The notes beneath the pieces are model-generated. The model saw only the letters and a list, made by a program, of their open reading frames with translations. It did no database searches and had not been told where the DNA came from. Positions 7,952-14,614 of a stretch of 64,000 nucleotides of DNA are shown one piece after another; position 1 is the stretch's first letter; the number at the start of each line of letters is the position of its first letter. A program made the position numbers and the translations under genes. Origin of the DNA: Candidatus Poriferihabitaceae bacterium (GTDB lineage Bacteria > Pseudomonadota > Gammaproteobacteria > Arenicellales > Poriferihabitantaceae); assembly GCA_965203365.1 (NCBI GenBank), contig OZ241878.1, positions 40,541 through 104,540 on the forward strand, read 5' to 3'.

Positions 7952-8671
7952 TTAAGGAGCCAATGGACCTTGTCCAGATTCGGGGCACTGCGCCAGTAGG
8001 ACACGCCTTGCGTGGGAGAAGAATTGCCGTCTCAAGAGAATCGAGATAACGAAGGCTGTCGTCAGCATGAACATGATGGGTCCGACAAACCAGCCAAGGA
8101 ATCCAAGCGCGAAGAACAAGCTGCGCATGCCAGCGTTGAAGTGTCGGCCAGCAATGATATTGAGGTTGGCCAGTTTTTTTGCCGCCAGATGACATTTCGC
8201 AGCATTCTCTTCACTGTATTCGGGAACCGCGCCGATCAGAATTCCACAGTAGTTGAACAGCCGATAGGCCCAGCCGAACTTGAAGAACGTGTAGGACAGA
8301 AGGAGCGTCAGGCAAAGGACCTTGACTTCCCATTTGGTGCGACTGAACTCGACTGGCATCGGTAGATCTTGATAAATCTCAAGCACCGTATCGGTTGAAC
8401 CCAGCAGTGCGAAACAGCCACCAATGGCGATGATGGTGGTCGAGGTGAAAAACGCTGCGCCCTGTTGCAGCCCGCTGATGATCTGAGTATCCACCATCCG
8501 GAACGGACGCTCGGCCAGCACTTGCGTCCAGCTTCTGCGTTGTTCCGACATGAGGCCACTCAGTGAGCGGGCTTTGAGAGGCGTGTATTCCATGACGATT
8601 TCCAGTGCGAGCCAAGCGACGATAAACAGCGCAAGCCCAATGATATCCGCCAGGGACAGCGCATTTAACAT
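7952..8671 (-). CDS. DUF599-family membrane protein
   Basis: RMVDTQIISGLQQGAAFFTST, FFKFGWAYRLFNY, HFNAGMRSLFFA motifs; several TM segments; start at MLNALS. Confidence 0.85.
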   Translation of the reverse strand: MLNALSLADIIGLALFIVAWLALEIVMEYTPLKARSLSGLMSEQRRSWTQVLAERPFRMVDTQIISGLQQGAAFFTSTTIIAIGGCFALLGSTDTVLEIYQDLPMPVEFSRTKWEVKVLCLTLLLSYTFFKFGWAYRLFNYCGILIGAVPEYSEENAAKCHLAAKKLANLNIIAGRHFNAGMRSLFFALGFLGWFVGPIMFMLTTAFVISILLRRQFFSHARRVLLAQCPESGQGPLAP

Positions 8672-8931
8672 GGCATCCAATCCGGCGAATGCAGAGCCCC
8701 ATTGAATGGATGTGTAACCCAGCCATGGCTGCATTTCGACCCAATGCCGATCATCAACCGTCGTTTCGAATCGGATCGACAAGACACTGGAACCGGCCAG
8801 CCGCCGAACATCGAACGAACGCCAACGATCATACTTCGGGGACCGGAAACCATGATGTGGCCCTTCCACGGTGGCCCTGACAGTCGCATTGGTCGGTCTC
8901 CCTTTCGTGTTCGCAGAGCTCCTGATTGAGT

Positions 8932-9789
8932 TCAGAAGATCATTCGAGACAGTCGTGTGCGATATTCGGAAACTAGGTCTCCCTTGTTGCCGAGTATGTC
9001 AAAGACCTTCAGCATGGTTTTGCGGGCACCATCATCCATGAATGATCGATCGCGTCGAATGATTTCCAGCAGATGGTCCATGGCGGCGGCATATTGTCGT
9101 TCGGCAATAAGGAGTTTGGCAAGACGATACCGCAATTCCAGGTTTTCTGGTTCACCGGTCAGCGAGGCTTCCAGTCCAGTCCGATCAGCAGGATTGGACT
9201 CCTGTCGAAATTCCAGGGTCGTCTGTAATGACTTATACTCAGGACTCTGCTGACCCTCCTCTGATACCGACTGGGCGACCCGGTCGGCTTCCTCAAGATT
9301 TCCCTCGGCAGTCAGCCAGGCCAGCAGTTGTAGTTTGGGTGCGTCATCGTCCGGTTGAGATTGCCACAGCCGGTTCAGAATGGCCTTGGCAGCGTCTGGC
9401 TGCCCGCTCTCATAGAGGTCCCTGGCTTCCGTCATGGATTTCTCGATGGAACTGGTCACATACTGATTGATCCTTTGTCGAATATTCGATTCGGGAAGGG
9501 CCCCCATGAACTGGTCCACGACCTTGCCATCTTTCAAGAACAGTACGGTGGGCAGGCTGCGGATACCGAACTGAGCGGCCAGAGCCTGTTCCCTGTCCGT
9601 GTCCACCTTGACCAGTTTGACGCTCCCCTGATAGGCCAATGCCAGTTTTTCCAGCACCGGGGCCAGTGACTGGCAAGGCCCGCACCATGCCGCCCAGAAA
9701 TCCACCATGACGAGTTGTCTGTGGGATGCTTCCACAGCATCCTCCAGGAATGTGGCGGTACTGGAGTTGATATAGGGTTCTTGGTCCAT
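8932..9789 (-). CDS. cnoX: Thioredoxin-TPR chaperedoxin (CnoX/YbbN family)
   Basis: VDFWAAWCGPC thioredoxin domain plus C-terminal TPR region ending ARKTMLKVFDILG...EYRTRLSRMIF. Confidence 0.88.
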   Translation of the reverse strand: MDQEPYINSSTATFLEDAVEASHRQLVMVDFWAAWCGPCQSLAPVLEKLALAYQGSVKLVKVDTDREQALAAQFGIRSLPTVLFLKDGKVVDQFMGALPESNIRQRINQYVTSSIEKSMTEARDLYESGQPDAAKAILNRLWQSQPDDDAPKLQLLAWLTAEGNLEEADRVAQSVSEEGQQSPEYKSLQTTLEFRQESNPADRTGLEASLTGEPENLELRYRLAKLLIAERQYAAAMDHLLEIIRRDRSFMDDGARKTMLKVFDILGNKGDLVSEYRTRLSRMIF

Positions 9790-10095
9790 CGCACATGCTA
9801 TGGGGGCAGGGGGTGTCGCTTTCAATGCCGGTTACAGAAAACGGTCCGGAGGGCGAATCGGCTTCGGAGATTCCACATGATTGACACGTCATTGTGTTGT
9901 GATTACCCCCGAATATTCCTCAACATCAGGTGGGTCCGTAGGCTGTGGGAAACCTAACGGCAAGGGAGTGTTGGAAGAAAAATCATCAAGCCATCATCCA
10001 TATTAGGAATGTCGTTGACGCGGGGCAACTGCGATCAAGTGGTGGGTATGTGCATACTCCACTATGATTCAGGATAAATTATGGGAATTATATAC

Positions 10096-10123
10096 TTGAT
10101 GAACCTATAATTTATGTTACCAT
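10096..10123 (+). promoter_or_regulatory. Putative sigma70 promoter inside the left end of the IS1595 element
   Basis: TTGATG (10096) - 16 nt - TACCAT (10118) with extended TG, upstream of transposase ATG 10149. Confidence 0.4.
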
Positions 10124-10148
10124 AGCAGTATATTTGTCGGCATGTGCC

Positions 10149-11057
10149 ATGAAAACTCTACTTGAATTCACCACGCGCTTCGGGACGGTGGAGGCCTGTT
10201 TGGAGCACTTGCAGGAAGCCCGGTGGAGTGAAGGGGCCTATTGCCCGCACTGCGGCGGCGACAGGATTTTCCATTTCAAGGATGGTCGTCGTCACAAGTG
10301 TGGCGACTGCAAGCACACTTTCCGCATCATTACTGGCACCATTTTTTCCGACAGCCCAATCAAAATGCTGCCCAAGTGGTTTGCCGCGATCTGGATTGAC
10401 ACTTGCCACAGCAAAGGGATTTCCAGCGTACAGCTTGGGAAAATGATTGGAGTGACTCAAAAGACGGCTTGGCATATGCTTCAGCGTATTCGCCACGCTG
10501 CCGGCCAAGACCAAGACGGCATGATGGGTGTTATTGTAGAGGCCGATGAAACCCACATCGGAGGCAAGGAGAAGAACAAGCACGCTTCAAAGCGGGTTGC
10601 TGGAACTCAGGGACGTAGCACCAAGACAAAGACAGTCGTTTTCGGCATGAAGGAACGGGGAGGAAAGACCAAGGCTTTTCGGGTTGATTCAGCCACTTCC
10701 AAGGAGATCACCCCGCACATGATCAAGAACATTGCTCTCGGTTCAAACGTCAATGAGGATGAGTACCGGGCCTATTGCTCACTGGATACGTTTTATGGGC
10801 TTTCCCGAGTCAATCACAGCACAGGGAAGCATGTACGGTACGGCACACATACCAATAGCATCGAAAGCGTGTGGGCGCTGGTTAAGCGTGTCTACCTAGG
10901 GATTCATCGTCATTGGAGCCGGAAGCACACACAGCGTTATATTGATTCTTGCGTCTTTCGCCTGAACAATCGGGAACTGGAAAGCAAGGACCGAGTAACC
11001 CACCTGATTAAGTGTGGGTTACTCGTGAAACTGCCTCATAAGGAGTTGGTGGCATGA
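10149..11057 (+). CDS. IS1595-family DDE transposase
   Basis: Zn ribbon CPHC...CGDC, HTH (GISSVQLGKMIGVTQKTAW), VEADET, DEYRAY, HTNSIESVWAL motifs. Confidence 0.93.
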   Translation: MKTLLEFTTRFGTVEACLEHLQEARWSEGAYCPHCGGDRIFHFKDGRRHKCGDCKHTFRIITGTIFSDSPIKMLPKWFAAIWIDTCHSKGISSVQLGKMIGVTQKTAWHMLQRIRHAAGQDQDGMMGVIVEADETHIGGKEKNKHASKRVAGTQGRSTKTKTVVFGMKERGGKTKAFRVDSATSKEITPHMIKNIALGSNVNEDEYRAYCSLDTFYGLSRVNHSTGKHVRYGTHTNSIESVWALVKRVYLGIHRHWSRKHTQRYIDSCVFRLNNRELESKDRVTHLIKCGLLVKLPHKELVA

Positions 11058-11945
11058 GCAATGTACTTCTCTTCAACGCACAATTCGAGCGTGTCCTGAA
11101 GCACACCAAAAGGCCGTATGTTGAGAAGGCACCAGCGTCTCCGTTCGTCAAATGGGCTGGCGGGAAGCGTTCCCTGATTCCCGATATCGCCAAGTACTTC
11201 CCCGACAGGATCGGCACATATTGGGAGCCGTTTGTAGGCGGCGGCGCAGTGTTCTTCACCATGGCGAACAGGATAGATCGGGCTATCCTGTCCGATGCAA
11301 ACGAGGAGTTGATCCTTGCCTATCAGGCGGTCAAGTCGCAGGTAGATGACTTGATAGACGTACTTAAGGAGCACAAGAAAAAACATCTCAAGGATGATGG
11401 GTACTACAATCACGTCAGAGCGCAGTCCCCCGATGCCACGTTGGAGATTGCCGCGCGATTTCTGTATCTGAACAAGACCTGTTTCAACGGCCTGTATCGT
11501 GTCAACAAACAGGGCAAATTCAATGTTCCCAAGGGACGATACAAGAATCCTGATATCTGCAATGAGGACAGATTGAGAGCTGCCAGCAAGGTACTGGCAA
11601 AAGCCACGCTCCGCGTGGGTGACTTTGAAAAGGTCGTCAAGCCGGGGAGCGATGATTTCATCTACTGCGATCCTCCCTATGACGGCTGTTTCACAGGCTA
11701 CCAGGCGGGCGGATTCTCCGAGGATGACCAGCAGCGTCTCCGAATGGCAAGTGATTCTTGGGTAGAAAAAGGTGCCGACGTGATGATAAGTAACGCCGAC
11801 ACTTCACTTATAAGGCGAATGTATCGGGGGGGGGGGGCAGGGCAGGAAATACATCCTGCATGAAGTCGAAGCCCCACGCCTGATCAACCCCAGTGCTTCC
11901 GGGAGAGGGTCCGCCGCTGAGCTGATCATAACCAGTTATGGTTAG
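11054..11945 (+). pseudogene. Dam-family (D12/DpnM-like) N6-adenine DNA methyltransferase, frameshifted in a G12 tract (candidate phase-variable gene)
   Basis: KWAGGK, EPFVGGGAV, FLYLNKTCFNGLYRVN, DPPY, VMISN. The current frame stops at 11863; removing one G from 11826-11837 restores KYILHEVEAPRLINPSASGRGSAAELIITSYG* ending 11945. Confidence 0.9.
11826..11837 (+). repeat. Homopolymer G12 tract in the methyltransferase gene
   Basis: TATC-GGGGGGGGGGGG-CAGG; coincides with the reading-frame break. Confidence 0.95.
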
Positions 11946-12393
11946 GGGTGCCCGTGCCAATCGGCGGGGCCGGATACTTGAGAAGTTCGTCATTGACCTG
12001 CTGGACGAGGAATACCAGAAGGTCACGTCGGATCGCTTCTTTGCCCTTCGGGGCTTGCGGCAACCCATATTCGCCGAGCAATGCCATATAGGGCGCGATA
12101 TCTACGGCAAGACTCGTCGCGTTGACTTCATCCTCTACCACCCCCATCGATGGCCGGATTCCCTTGTCATCCAGTGCAAGTGGCAAGCCTCGCACGGAAG
12201 CGTCGAGGAGAAATATCCGTTTGAAGTCTTGTCAATTCAGATGAACGAGTTCAGCACCATCATTGTGCTGGACGGCGGCGGGTATACCCAGGGTGCAAAG
12301 CAATGGCTTGCTGGGCAGGCCGGTAAGAACAAGCTGATCCACGTCATGGATCAAGGAGAGATTCATAGGTTTTACAGCCAGGGGAGGTTGTAA
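11938..12393 (+). CDS. Small PD-(D/E)XK-superfamily nuclease, putative restriction endonuclease
   Basis: G..LE, VDF...LVIQCKWQ..GSVEEK, IIVLDGGGY motifs; directly downstream of the MTase and overlapping its restored stop. Confidence 0.75.
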   Translation: MVRGARANRRGRILEKFVIDLLDEEYQKVTSDRFFALRGLRQPIFAEQCHIGRDIYGKTRRVDFILYHPHRWPDSLVIQCKWQASHGSVEEKYPFEVLSIQMNEFSTIIVLDGGGYTQGAKQWLAGQAGKNKLIHVMDQGEIHRFYSQGRL

Positions 12394-12596
12394 TGGTGGA
12401 TGACTGCAAGCTACATAGAGGACAATGTTCTGAAACCGACCCAAATGTAAATCATATACTGGAACATTTGCCTGAAAACCAATCGGGTCCGGGCAGACAT
12501 AAATGTGCATACTGCGCCTATGAGAGAGGTAGGCAGGACTATAAACGACAGATTGCACATTTTCTTGCTTGCAAGGAAAGTGAGCTGCCAATATAA
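12393..12596 (+). CDS. Small Cys/His-rich hypothetical protein (67 aa)
   Basis: TAATG coupling to the nuclease; LPENQSGPGRHKCAYCAYERG motif with CxxC; lies inside the IS ends. Confidence 0.65.
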   Translation: MVDDCKLHRGQCSETDPNVNHILEHLPENQSGPGRHKCAYCAYERGRQDYKRQIAHFLACKESELPI

Positions 12597-13387
12597 ATTC
12601 ACTTATTAATTTAAGACAGGCTGTAGCGCAGGGAGCACATTTCCATGGCTATTCAACCAATCCCAGACACTGACTATTTTTTAGGATCGTCTTGTATATA
12701 AACCCCTAAATTATTAATTATTGTCTGATCGTGAAAGCCTTGGCCGCTACGTCGCGACCTTCGCTGACCCGGTGGACGATCGATTTTTTTTCACGAGACA
12801 AATTGTCCGTGACAGTGTAGCAGTATACATTCATCAACCTCCCTGCATGGAGAAGGGATCATTCTGGTCCGTTTTCCGAGTCGGTCTTGCATAGCTGATA
12901 TCCAGGTGCTCCCGACTCAAGGGGGAGCAACACCGTACGGTGTTGGGACCGTTCAGGACGATGCTGGCGATTGTGTTCATGGTGTCAGTGGATGGTTTGC
13001 ATTGACGGCCGAGGTCAGGCGCTTTGGGTCAGACGGTTCCAGCGATGGCGATACCTGATGAACCGTCCGCGCTACGTTTGTTGTCTTTCGGTCCTTAATG
13101 CCGATAGCGACTTATTCATTCCGGATGCAGCGGGGCGGCTCACCGAGTCCCACTGTGGTCTTTGGGCTGGGGTGATGAATGTTCGTCGGGCGGTTTCAGA
13201 TTCGTACCGTTTCGGATACGGTCGACAGGGGGTCACCGGATGACATCTGAACTAATGAGGTGCTGATCAACGGTATCAGGAATCACTGTATTCTCGATTC
13301 TCGAGCCAAGGCACCACCCGAACAAAGCCGTGTCAGGATGGACTGTCCTTCGTCGTGATGAGGCTGTGGCAGGGGTCGTAAAGCGTT

Positions 13388-14212
13388 TCAGCCCATCAGG
13401 TGGGTTCGGAAAAAAGATATGGTCCGATTCCAGGAAAGTGCGGCGTCATCAGCATCATAACGAGCACTGGTGGGGTTGGCGAATGCATGGTCCGCATCAT
13501 ACCAATGTATGGTCAGATCGGTTTTTCCAGCGGCTTGCATGGCTGCCTCGAATTGGTTGACCATGGATTGATTGATCCAGTTGTCCCGGGTGGCAAAGTG
13601 ACCAAGGACAGGGCTTTGCAACGACGTCAGGTCGACGGTGCTTTTCTCGACATTGCCGTAGTAAACCACGGTCGCATCCACAGGCGCGGCCAATGAAGCA
13701 TTGAGTGACCATCCGCCACCAAAGCACCAGCCGACGGTGCCCACCTTGCCGTTAGTGGCCGCATGGTCTTTCAAAAAATCAATCCAGCTGACCAACGTGT
13801 CGGTGGCCTCCGTCCCCTTCACCGCTTGCATCAGTGCTCGTGCGCGATCTGGGTTAGTAGCCATGTTTCCGTCATACAGATCCACCGCCAAGGCGACAAA
13901 GCCGAGATTGGCCAACTCGGCAGCGACAGACCTGATCTGGTCATTCAGCCCCCACCATTCATGAATCAGGAGTACAGCCGGTGCATGGGCAGCATCTGGT
14001 ATGGCGAGGGCGGCAGAGACGGTTCGGCCCGCTTGGGTGCTTATGTGGATGGTGTCGATACGACCTGCGGCTGCCTGACTGAGGTCGGGATATGCCAGTA
14101 CCGTCGCCAGAGGTAGGGAGGCCAGACCTTTGAGAAAAAGACGACGGTCGGTGTCTGAAACCGGGATCCGTGGCATTTTTTGGTGATTGCCACAACCCTT
14201 GATATCACACAT
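13388..14212 (-). CDS. Dienelactone hydrolase family protein, Tat-exported
   Basis: DRRLFLKG twin-arginine motif, IHEWWGLN, GWCFGG nucleophile, HAFAN; start could be 14176. Confidence 0.9.
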   Translation of the reverse strand: MCDIKGCGNHQKMPRIPVSDTDRRLFLKGLASLPLATVLAYPDLSQAAAGRIDTIHISTQAGRTVSAALAIPDAAHAPAVLLIHEWWGLNDQIRSVAAELANLGFVALAVDLYDGNMATNPDRARALMQAVKGTEATDTLVSWIDFLKDHAATNGKVGTVGWCFGGGWSLNASLAAPVDATVVYYGNVEKSTVDLTSLQSPVLGHFATRDNWINQSMVNQFEAAMQAAGKTDLTIHWYDADHAFANPTSARYDADDAALSWNRTISFFRTHLMG

Positions 14213-14614
14213 AATGCAATTTGGATCCTCAAGCAAGATAACGGTATAGCCATGGAAAACCCAAGGCATCGGCTGCAGCACCTGATGCGGTCTACAGTCC
14301 TAGGACTATACTATAACCCAATTGGAATGAACCTTTTCCTCATTCAGTTCAACACTCCGGTCAATCGGTGATTCGAGTGTTCCGTCTCGATGGACGTCAC
14401 TTGTGAGAGTTCAAGGCCGCAGGGACGGCCGCGAGAGTGTCTGGTCCTACCCATTTCGCCGAAAATCGCGCCTAACCCCGAATCAATGGGTGGGTGATAG
14501 ATGGGTGTGCGGGTTCACTACCCACTGGATGACTCCAGTGCATGAGATCCATCATCCGGTGGCTTGATAGCCTATAATTCGCTCCATTTTGAATTGTCGA
14601 TCACTCCGATAACC

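Follow-up and report, generated by a model that had tools for sequence, protein, structure and literature searches.

An IS1595-family transporter insertion sequence with a probable DpnII-type restriction-modification passenger and a variable G run in its methylase gene

The window analysed here, a stretch of 64,000 nucleotides from contig OZ241878.1 of a Candidatus Poriferihabitaceae bacterium, holds at positions 10083-12706 a transporter insertion sequence (tIS) of the IS1595 family, which is present in a single copy and was acquired horizontally. In addition to its transposase it encodes a Dam/DpnM-type methyltransferase (methylase), a nuclease and a small Cys/His protein, the product of the fourth open reading frame (ORF4). 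We consider it likely that these passenger genes make up a DpnII-type restriction-modification module and that a hypermutable G run interrupts its methylase. The features of the element are listed below by window coordinates, strand and description.

10075-10082, no strand: left copy of the 8-bp target-site duplication, TAAATTAT
10083-10107, + strand: left terminal inverted repeat, matching the right end at 19/25 positions; positions 14-23 are TTGATGAACC
10096-10101, + strand: -35-like hexamer in the left end, TTGATG (4/6), followed by a weak -10, TACCAT (4/6)
10149-11057, + strand: DDE transposase of the IS1595 family, with a zinc ribbon at its N-terminus; 302 residues from the ATG, with the ORF open from a TTG at 10134
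11054-11863, + strand: Dam/DpnM-type N6-adenine DNA methyltransferase as it stands; 269 residues, with a premature end after the G run
11826-11837, + strand: homopolymer of 12 G (G12) that puts the methyltransferase out of frame; a run of 11 or 14 G (G11 or G14) would keep the frame
11838-11945, + strand: last 35 codons of the methyltransferase, which are conserved and lie in the +1 frame (open over 11814-11945); their final 8 nt overlap the nuclease start
11938-12393, + strand: PD-(D/E)XK nuclease of 151 residues, Pfam PDDEXK_11, weakly DpnII-like; no Shine-Dalgarno sequence before the ATG
12393-12596, + strand: Cys/His protein of 67 residues (ORF4), from a conserved family of small zinc-finger-like proteins; preceded by GGGGAGG
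12682-12706, - strand: right terminal inverted repeat, with GATC at 12685-12688 (positions 19-22 from the tip)
12707-12714, no strand: right copy of the target-site duplication, TAAATTAT

Structure and Gene Content of the Element

Members of the IS1595 family end in short inverted repeats and duplicate 8 bp of AT-rich target DNA. The element has ends of this kind (19/25) and its 2624 bp lie between two exact copies of TAAATTAT, a word that occurs three times on the + strand of the entire window; these are the boundaries that an earlier, sequence-only reading of this DNA had proposed, and our analysis bears them out. The transposase gene is intact, and its product matches Pfam DDE_Tnp_IS1595 (7.5e-34; 117 bits, cut-off 27) and NCBIfam NF033547 IS1595 (1.6e-46; 158.9 bits, cut-off 75), with Zn_ribbon_IS1595 covering residues 15-57 (5.9e-11). 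The methylase matches MethyltransfD12 (3e-60) and TIGR00571 dam (256 bits, cut-off 114.85), and its closest solved relative is DpnM, which methylates GATC in the DpnII system (2dpm; 1.4e-53, 185 bits, compared with 116 bits for E. coli Dam), and with which it has the hairpin FNGLYRVN..FNVP.GRYKNP in common. The nuclease matches PDDEXK_11 (8.5e-27). The identities first read for these three genes are therefore backed by Pfam and NCBIfam, while ORF4 is without a family match. As the transposase domains, ends and duplication are all as expected and the cargo lies entirely between the ends, the description of the element as an IS1595-family member with passenger genes also holds, as does that of the cargo as a restriction-modification-like pair. 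From their sequences we predict that the methylase and nuclease form a compact restriction-modification module, probably one directed at GATC (DpnII-type).

The genes are tightly packed. The ATGA at 11054-11057 is, as first read, both the transposase stop and the methylase start, the latter preceded by AAGGAG, and the TAATG at 12391-12395 joins the nuclease stop to the ORF4 start. The left ends of relatives have a promoter pattern consisting of TTGACG, a spacer of 16-17 nt and a TATAAT-like hexamer, and from such signals we infer that the genes of the element form one operon, read from a promoter with its -35 in the left end and translationally chained by the stop/start overlaps. The earlier claim that the cargo is co-expressed with the transposase is not supported as it was stated; what can be kept of it is that the gene overlaps and the promoter-like left end make co-expression a reasonable supposition.

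Family Distribution and Insertion Site

A family scan of one genome per species yielded 70 nuclease loci, all of which were classified by tblastn, with taxa as given in the database records:

33 loci: full transposase, methylase and nuclease, adjacent and in the same order
9 loci: same order, broken transposase
17 loci: methylase and nuclease, no transposase within 3.5 kb
4 loci: methylase separated or rearranged
7 loci: nuclease only, several cut by contig ends

The order transposase-methylase-nuclease is thus present in 42/70 loci. Paired ends of the same IS1595 type enclose the cargo in 30/70 loci, 23 of which have perfect (8/8), mostly AT-rich duplications, so that the linkage of this cargo to an IS1595 transposase and its ends, drawn earlier from one copy, is a recurrent one. 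The loci are distributed over at least nine phyla (Acidobacteriota, Pseudomonadota [Alpha-, Beta- and Gammaproteobacteria], Chloroflexota, Verrucomicrobiota, Binatota, Poribacteria, Bacteroidota and Actinomycetota, along with Desulfovibrionaceae), and the elements measure 2311-2340 bp with three genes and 2524-2588 bp with four. Copies from Paracoccaceae, other Alphaproteobacteria and Arenicellales are 93-97% identical, implying recent transfer. Among 40 relatives, a related element was found only in G035, a member of another family of the same order, and a class-wide sample had transposase relatives in 22 of 300 other genomes (a tally that includes the unpublished G079 and G181, which enter no other result), none above 47% identity. 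A search of a plasmid collection with the nuclease returned one weak partial match and so gave no support for a plasmid vehicle. In a quick methylase tree the loci without transposase were interleaved with the transposase-linked ones; most forks were weak, and we make no claim as to the number of captures.

Further IS1595-type transporter elements of 2.4-2.8 kb were found in four genomes (L097 in G042, L100 in G293, L104 in G270, and L098/L099 in G110). Perfect 8-bp duplications flank L097, L098 and L100, and the flanks of L104 and L099 agree at 4/8 positions. The L097 cargo consists of unknown ORFs, while the G293 element combines its transposase with an N6_N4 methylase and an unknown protein of 210 residues, the G270 element with an N6_N4 methylase, an ORF of 105 residues and an HNH nuclease, and the G110 element with a D12 methylase (44% identical, with the same hairpin) and a PDDEXK_11 nuclease. 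Together with the 70-locus family, the last three elements show the transposase-methylase-nuclease layout to be one that recurs among IS1595 transporter elements.

In the host, whose genome is a single contig of 3.70 Mb, the element is present as one full copy between genes for a thioredoxin-tetratricopeptide repeat protein and a dienelactone hydrolase. These flanking genes are 3602 bp apart, or 970 bp after subtraction of the element, and in same-genus genomes the distance is 794-1178 bp (G006, G007, G009 and G011) or ~2.3 kb (G003). None of these five genomes has the transposase, methylase or nuclease at this locus; relatives that retain the cargo without the transposase there, the finding that would have told against a mobile cassette, were accordingly not seen. 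The empty site that the sequence-only reading expected in related genomes is supported by this synteny and not to the base, as the flanking genes are ~70-85% identical and the intergenic DNA cannot be aligned with that of the same-genus genomes. Contigs from public sequencing runs span both element junctions, and none joins the flanks without the element. Contigs of two of these runs (X1 and X3) end at a 30-nt word in the transposase gene (10556-10585), which also occurs in short contigs of higher depth and is thus shared with other sequences in those samples. The use of the same TAAATTAT at locus L027 could have meant a shared insertion, a reading we rejected on finding unrelated flanks there; a target preference is indicated instead.

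Several observations concern the remains and rearrangements of related copies. The host has a solo right end of a related four-gene element (L002 ~1500-1590 = G000:C1:1054298-1054388), 79-80% identical to window 12618-12708 and adjoining a decayed integrase-like gene; it has GATC with one mismatch (GACAATCC) and an intact terminator-like hairpin with a U run. The region between ORF4 and the right end in the window copy is without a terminator-like structure (folding z -0.18), unlike that solo end, and an Rfam scan of 8500-14500 gave no match. Other IS1595-family transposase matches in the host genome were too distant or partial to serve as end controls. The G035 element (L069/L011, ~L011 706-3656) has the duplication ATGAGTTT, a split transposase and an in-frame methylase (G8), and after residue ~117 its nuclease is replaced by unrelated DNA with an opposite-strand ORF of 190 residues that has no Pfam family. 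On one Marinacidobacterales contig, loci L015 and L016, ~3.4 Mb apart, have swapped flanking words (TTCTGTTA/CTAATTAA versus CTAATTAA/TTCTGTTA), as expected from inversion by recombination between copies. Three Nitrosomonadaceae copies (L029, L030 and L032) show a comparable mixture of flanks.

The Methylase Is Out of Frame at G12 in the Window Copy

The ORF that begins at 11054 stops at a TGA (11861-11863), 75 nt before the nuclease ATG. The frame that reaches the TAG at 11943-11945 is the +1 frame, which is open only from 11814, and the G12 run lies between the two frames. The intact methyltransferase frame of a DpnII-type system is therefore not found in this copy. The sequence-only reading had described a fully coupled operon in which all four ORFs overlap, with an 8-nt overlap at 11938-11945 between methylase and nuclease. 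That overlap is present only after a +1 shift across G12, a frameshift that had been crossed unnoticed; an out-of-frame methylase leaves the series of overlaps interrupted at the methylase-nuclease junction, and this part of the description has to be withdrawn for the window copy.

Long homopolymers are error-prone on some sequencing platforms, and an error in sequencing or assembly, with the true sequence in frame, would account for the broken gene. We regard this as highly improbable. Logan contigs of runs X1 and X3 cover 10556-13200 with 0 differences and 0 gaps at depths of ~99 and ~53, respectively, and short contigs of X4 (from a different study, with a different organism label) and X5 cross the G run with 0 gaps. 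G12 is thus present in contigs of four public runs from two studies and, at the consensus level, in the host genome, with the proviso that the source sample may itself be the best contig holder, which makes this support only partly independent. These contigs are consensus sequences, blind to minor variants.

The G Run in Related Copies

To place this run in context we compared 20 copies of the closest clade, comprising that in the window, 17 genome loci and two metagenome loci. In all 20 a G run is found at the same methylase codon, after ...RR[LMI]Y. Uninterrupted runs have lengths of 6, 8, 9 (four copies), 10 (three), 11, 12 (two), 14, 15, 16, 17 and 18, and three copies have interrupted runs, namely G6AG7 in the identical copies L028 and L030 and G8AG3 in L094. 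At this codon more distant relatives have CGAGGAGGA or unrelated codons. The methylase is in frame in 5/20 copies (L022, L032, L069, L075 and L091) and out of frame in 15/20. The most direct evidence of length change is in one Nitrosomonadaceae genome with five copies that are 99.5-100% identical over 2.3 kb, where the G run, at lengths of 16, 14, 14, 14 and 9, is the sole gap in any pair. Two features of contingency genes are thus present, a long homopolymer within the reading frame and a repeat length that varies between near-identical copies.

Despite this variation the sequence behind the run appears to be maintained. For the 28 codons 3' of the run, the pooled ratio of nonsynonymous to synonymous differences (pN/pS) is 0.30 with pS ~0.7 (28 pairs from eight lineages, seven of which are now out of frame), and full-length transposase and nuclease ORFs are present in 12 of the 13 out-of-frame copies that are bounded by ends. 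These comparisons indicate that the G run is hypermutable and carried along with the element, and that the region behind it is kept functional. The combination of a hypermutable run with constrained codons behind it fits a reversible switch or slippage decoding better than simple decay, and we consider it probable, from the sequences compared, that the run is a slippage-prone switch of which G12 is the OFF state.

Plain decay would make G12 an ordinary inactivating mutation in a functionless hypermutable tract, the element being a dying passenger with a silent or inactive nuclease and no switch. The split of five copies in frame and 15 out is equally expected from random drift of a decaying tract, in which one third would be in frame and two thirds out by chance, and further points in favor are that the left end of the window copy lacks GATC, that 6/25 end positions differ and that the host has no second copy. 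No length variants were seen across the four public runs, in consensus contigs that possibly represent one strain. Decay is moreover evident in some relatives, such as L069, with its split transposase and truncated nuclease, L021, with a fragmented methylase, and L035, with a 2-kb insertion. Against this, the G run is the sole lesion in most copies, with transposase and nuclease intact in nearly all of the end-bounded out-of-frame copies; the downstream codons have been under purifying selection across lineages; and long unbroken runs of up to 18 G persist in many hosts, with only L028/L030 and L094 interrupted. We therefore hold decay to be unlikely, if a serious rival.

Somewhat less likely still, in our estimation, is a bypass at the RNA level, in which RNA polymerase slips on the G run to give some full-length methylase, and with it the coupled nuclease, at a constitutive low level that is not phase-variable. 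Such a bypass would explain why tract lengths fall in all three frames and the C-terminal codons are nevertheless conserved, and transcriptional slippage on homopolymers is exploited by IS elements (PMC1088944). The cases documented there are runs of A and T, however, and in our set a change of length at the DNA level is demonstrable between near-identical copies. The switch described above is the reading we retain.

Long G runs are also frequent in the host genome at large: G/C homopolymers reach 9 nt or more at 94 sites and 12 nt or more at 31, the longest being 38 nt, and by chance ~1.5 runs of >=12 nt would be expected. Examples on G000:C1 are at 394358, 2125356, 2489418, 2128910, 2401168, 2493375, 2230641, 3244710, 858646, 2564180, 370906 and 599944. 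Many of the long runs lie between a -35 of the TTGAC/TTGAT type and a -10 of the TAGGAT/TACAGT type, in repeated contexts with copy-specific lengths, and judging by these contexts they look like families of promoter-spacer poly-G switches. The host encodes MutS.

The Nuclease and Its Possible Coupling to the Methylase

The nuclease belongs to a well-conserved family of proteins of ~151 residues, for which 341 candidates gave 337 clusters at E<=0.001; D63, Q79, K81, E91 and E96 are among its invariant residues, and longer or fused relatives were not found, which is weak evidence. Pfam DpnII is matched at E<=0.01 by 17/27 members of the family (best 2.7e-6). An AlphaFold model of the nuclease (predicted local distance difference test, pLDDT, 86.2; predicted template modelling score, pTM, 0.82) aligned best in VIA-align with BstEII, a type II enzyme, over the C-terminal half of the latter (Z 9.8, root mean square deviation 3.9, 132 residues aligned); Can2 and Bax1 came next, together with many type II restriction enzymes and PD-(D/E)XK nucleases. 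The Z values point to a restriction-endonuclease fold and to no specific family, and no DpnII-family structure was among the fold matches listed. Foldseek of the model against the PDB gave no match at E<=0.001, and the nuclease profile found nothing meaningful among sequences of solved structures (best E 0.73).

The nuclease ATG lies two codons before the true stop of the methylase (ATGGTTAG), and an overlap of the ATGnnTAG type is found in 13 of the 14 loci in which the alignment begins at residue 1. Under the mechanism we propose, ribosomes that complete the full-length methylase would be needed for translation of the nuclease, and an out-of-frame run would halt them 75 nt upstream, silencing both genes. 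As the nuclease has no ribosome-binding site and its start lies inside the methylase stop region, the OFF state would probably lower nuclease synthesis too. Such coupling would explain how the genome tolerates an intact nuclease beside a broken methylase, despite its 24,833 GATC sites (observed/expected 0.90). From the gene arrangement we judge this step, that an out-of-frame G run lowers the nuclease as well, to be quite possible, with the chances slightly on the other side. If true, the dependence of the nuclease on methylase translation would provide a switchable restriction system with a simple safeguard.

The host has one further D12-like methylase, and only one, a distantly related protein of 384 residues (L086 949-2103, - strand; G000:C1 ~2404300-2405500). 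It matches dam weakly (37 bits), contains the motifs FVGGG and DPPY and is extended well beyond them at the N-terminus; its gene is solitary, adjoining a 4Fe-4S ferredoxin-like gene. MutH and SeqA were absent from the host genome search.

GATC in the Ends of the Element

We surveyed the ends of 27 elements (26 loci and the window copy, with four duplicate copies dropped). GATC occurs within the first 30 nt in 26/27 left and 26/27 right ends (52/54). Positions 19-22 are G, A, T and C in 19-20 of the 20 lineage representatives per end, with the outer positions 4-12 being more variable. In the left ends of these representatives the hexamer at positions 14-19 is TTGACG or a near variant, and 16-17 nt after it a TATAAT-like hexamer matches at >=4/6 positions in 20/20 and at >=5/6 in 13/20; GATC thus lies directly against what is likely the -35 box of the transposase operon. 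In the same loci there are also about seven further kinds of IS1595-type end, which have outer bases in common with these ends and no GATC.

A GATC in both ends would let the element's own methylase modulate the transposase promoter or the binding of the ends. On the strength of the end survey we put such control forward tentatively and think it more probably absent than present. All of the surveyed GATC-bearing elements belong to one clade, and the more distant G110 element has no GATC in its ends despite the same kind of cargo, so that the link between GATC in the ends and this cargo is not general. A still more speculative extension, to which we attach a slightly lower probability, is an IS with its own epigenetic control, in which the methylase marks the GATC at the ends and -35 and the poly-G run switches methylation, restriction and transposition together. 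If true, such self-carried control would free the element from host Dam when it moves between phyla.

The fixed GATC also raises the possibility that both enzymes of the cargo have their role in transposition instead of restriction, with the methylase marking the end GATC and the nuclease acting on the ends or the donor site for the DDE transposase. The 52 of 54 ends with GATC at a fixed position, its absence from the other end types in the same loci, and the precedent of IS10, in which end binding and transposase transcription are under host Dam control (PMC5371812), would all be in keeping with this. We think it improbable, as methylase-nuclease pairs occur without a transposase in 17/70 loci, the GATC is 18 nt inside the tip and away from the cleavage site, the G110 relative lacks it, and the closest solved relative of the methylase is from a classical restriction system.

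We continue to favor a restriction-modification passenger with a switchable methylase, and set against it here the remaining points that weigh on the other side, in addition to the frame split, the constant length in public runs and the G110 ends noted above. The match of the nuclease to Pfam DpnII, at 19.5 bits, is under the 23-bit curated cut-off and covers profile positions 141-253 of 278, and the GATC specificity of the module is an inference from homology. The second D12-like methyltransferase could shield the genome instead of a coupled OFF state. A strict consensus promoter scan of the window copy found no + strand promoter. Lastly, in the left end of the window copy TTGATGAACC replaces the TTGACGATCC of the clade, with loss of GATC; judged by this loss, the 6/25 end mismatches and the weak promoter signal, this copy may be losing its mobility.

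ORF4, a Small Cys/His Protein

No Pfam family covers the ORF4 domain, yet the distribution of its homologs indicates that ORF4 is a real, conserved small gene. Homologs occur in 10/70 genome loci and 1/5 metagenome loci, with the transposase present or not, and lie after the nuclease except in L046 and L077, where they precede it. Eight residues are invariant in 13 sequences (C5, Q30, R35, H36, C38, C41, A42 and G46), and a profile search found 672 representatives at E<=0.001, 265 of them at E<=1e-10. Other four-gene elements have unrelated small ORFs in the ORF4 slot.

The domain is often in tandem, and in 21 of the best 150 representatives, which were scanned for fusions, its partners were NOV_C (seven), a MutH/MvaI-like nuclease (two), DndB (two), and a PLD-like nuclease, a trypsin-like peptidase and a McrB-like AAA_5 ATPase (one each), with seven having no Pfam domain. 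These associations suggest that ORF4 is an uncharacterized zinc-binding, probably DNA-reading, module of restriction-type systems; in the element, where it is a protein on its own, it would be an optional DNA-binding accessory of the restriction-modification module, and its domain may be a new DNA-reading module of defense systems. A predicted complex of the nuclease with ORF4 (score 0.00, mark 0.32) counts neither way. In an Acidimicrobiales locus (L073 4966-5889, - strand) an ORF4-type domain is fused to the N-terminus of a trypsin-like serine peptidase, beside the nuclease and methylase.

Comparison with Known Systems

Restriction-modification genes are known as selfish mobile units whose route of travel is often unclear; here they are the built-in passenger of an IS of 2.3-2.6 kb that has recently crossed classes and phyla. 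A poly-G run that is carried with the element and sets the frame of its methylase would be of wider interest, and the GATC beside the transposase promoter hints that the element may regulate itself through its own methylase. The individual components are established, namely IS1595 transporter ISs, mobile restriction-modification units (PMC3031569, PMC2875022), poly-G phase variation of restriction genes (PMC4889913, PMC3401435, PMC4965091) and Dam control of IS10. In the literature searched, with ISfinder, REBASE and paper supplements outside its scope, we came across no account of a restriction-modification passenger in an IS1595 element, nor of the poly-G run or the end GATC of such an element.

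The tISs of the IS1595 family have passenger genes inside their ends (PMC5704250), and tISs as a group have been described as confined to two families, IS1595 and IS66 (bioRxiv 10.1101/2021.05.26.445724). Like our element, tISCpe8 and MTnSag1 have an IS1595-type DDE transposase, inverted ends of ~25 bp, an 8-bp duplication and internal passengers; MTnSag1 is mobilizable and tISCpe8 carries lincomycin resistance, whereas the element carries a methylase-nuclease module. The module itself most resembles the DpnII/MboI-type systems, its methylase being most similar to DpnM (M.DpnIIA; 185 bits), with the same DNA-contacting hairpin motif, and its nuclease aligning weakly with the C-terminal part of Pfam DpnII. 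Unlike DpnII, the nuclease is about half the size (151 residues) and has a Pfam family of its own, PDDEXK_11, and the module lies inside a transposon and has a predicted specificity.

In IS10, Dam methylation of GATC in the end and promoter governs transposase binding and transcription (PMC5371812), and the family of our element similarly has GATC in its ends and beside the transposase promoter. IS10/Tn10 depends on host Dam, whereas the element would bring its own methylase, and the window copy has GATC in one end only. In Campylobacter jejuni an intragenic G run likewise sets the frame of Cj0031, a methyltransferase-bearing restriction gene; in contrast, the gene with the run here encodes a separate methylase (type II, Dam class) and is part of a transposon that has carried the run across phyla, and the switching of the run is predicted from the comparison of copies. 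Lastly, the PaeR7I restriction-modification unit was, like this one, moved by insertion-sequence activity (PMC3031569). In that case separate IS copies mobilized a plasmid-borne system in the laboratory, whereas here the system is the built-in passenger of a single IS.

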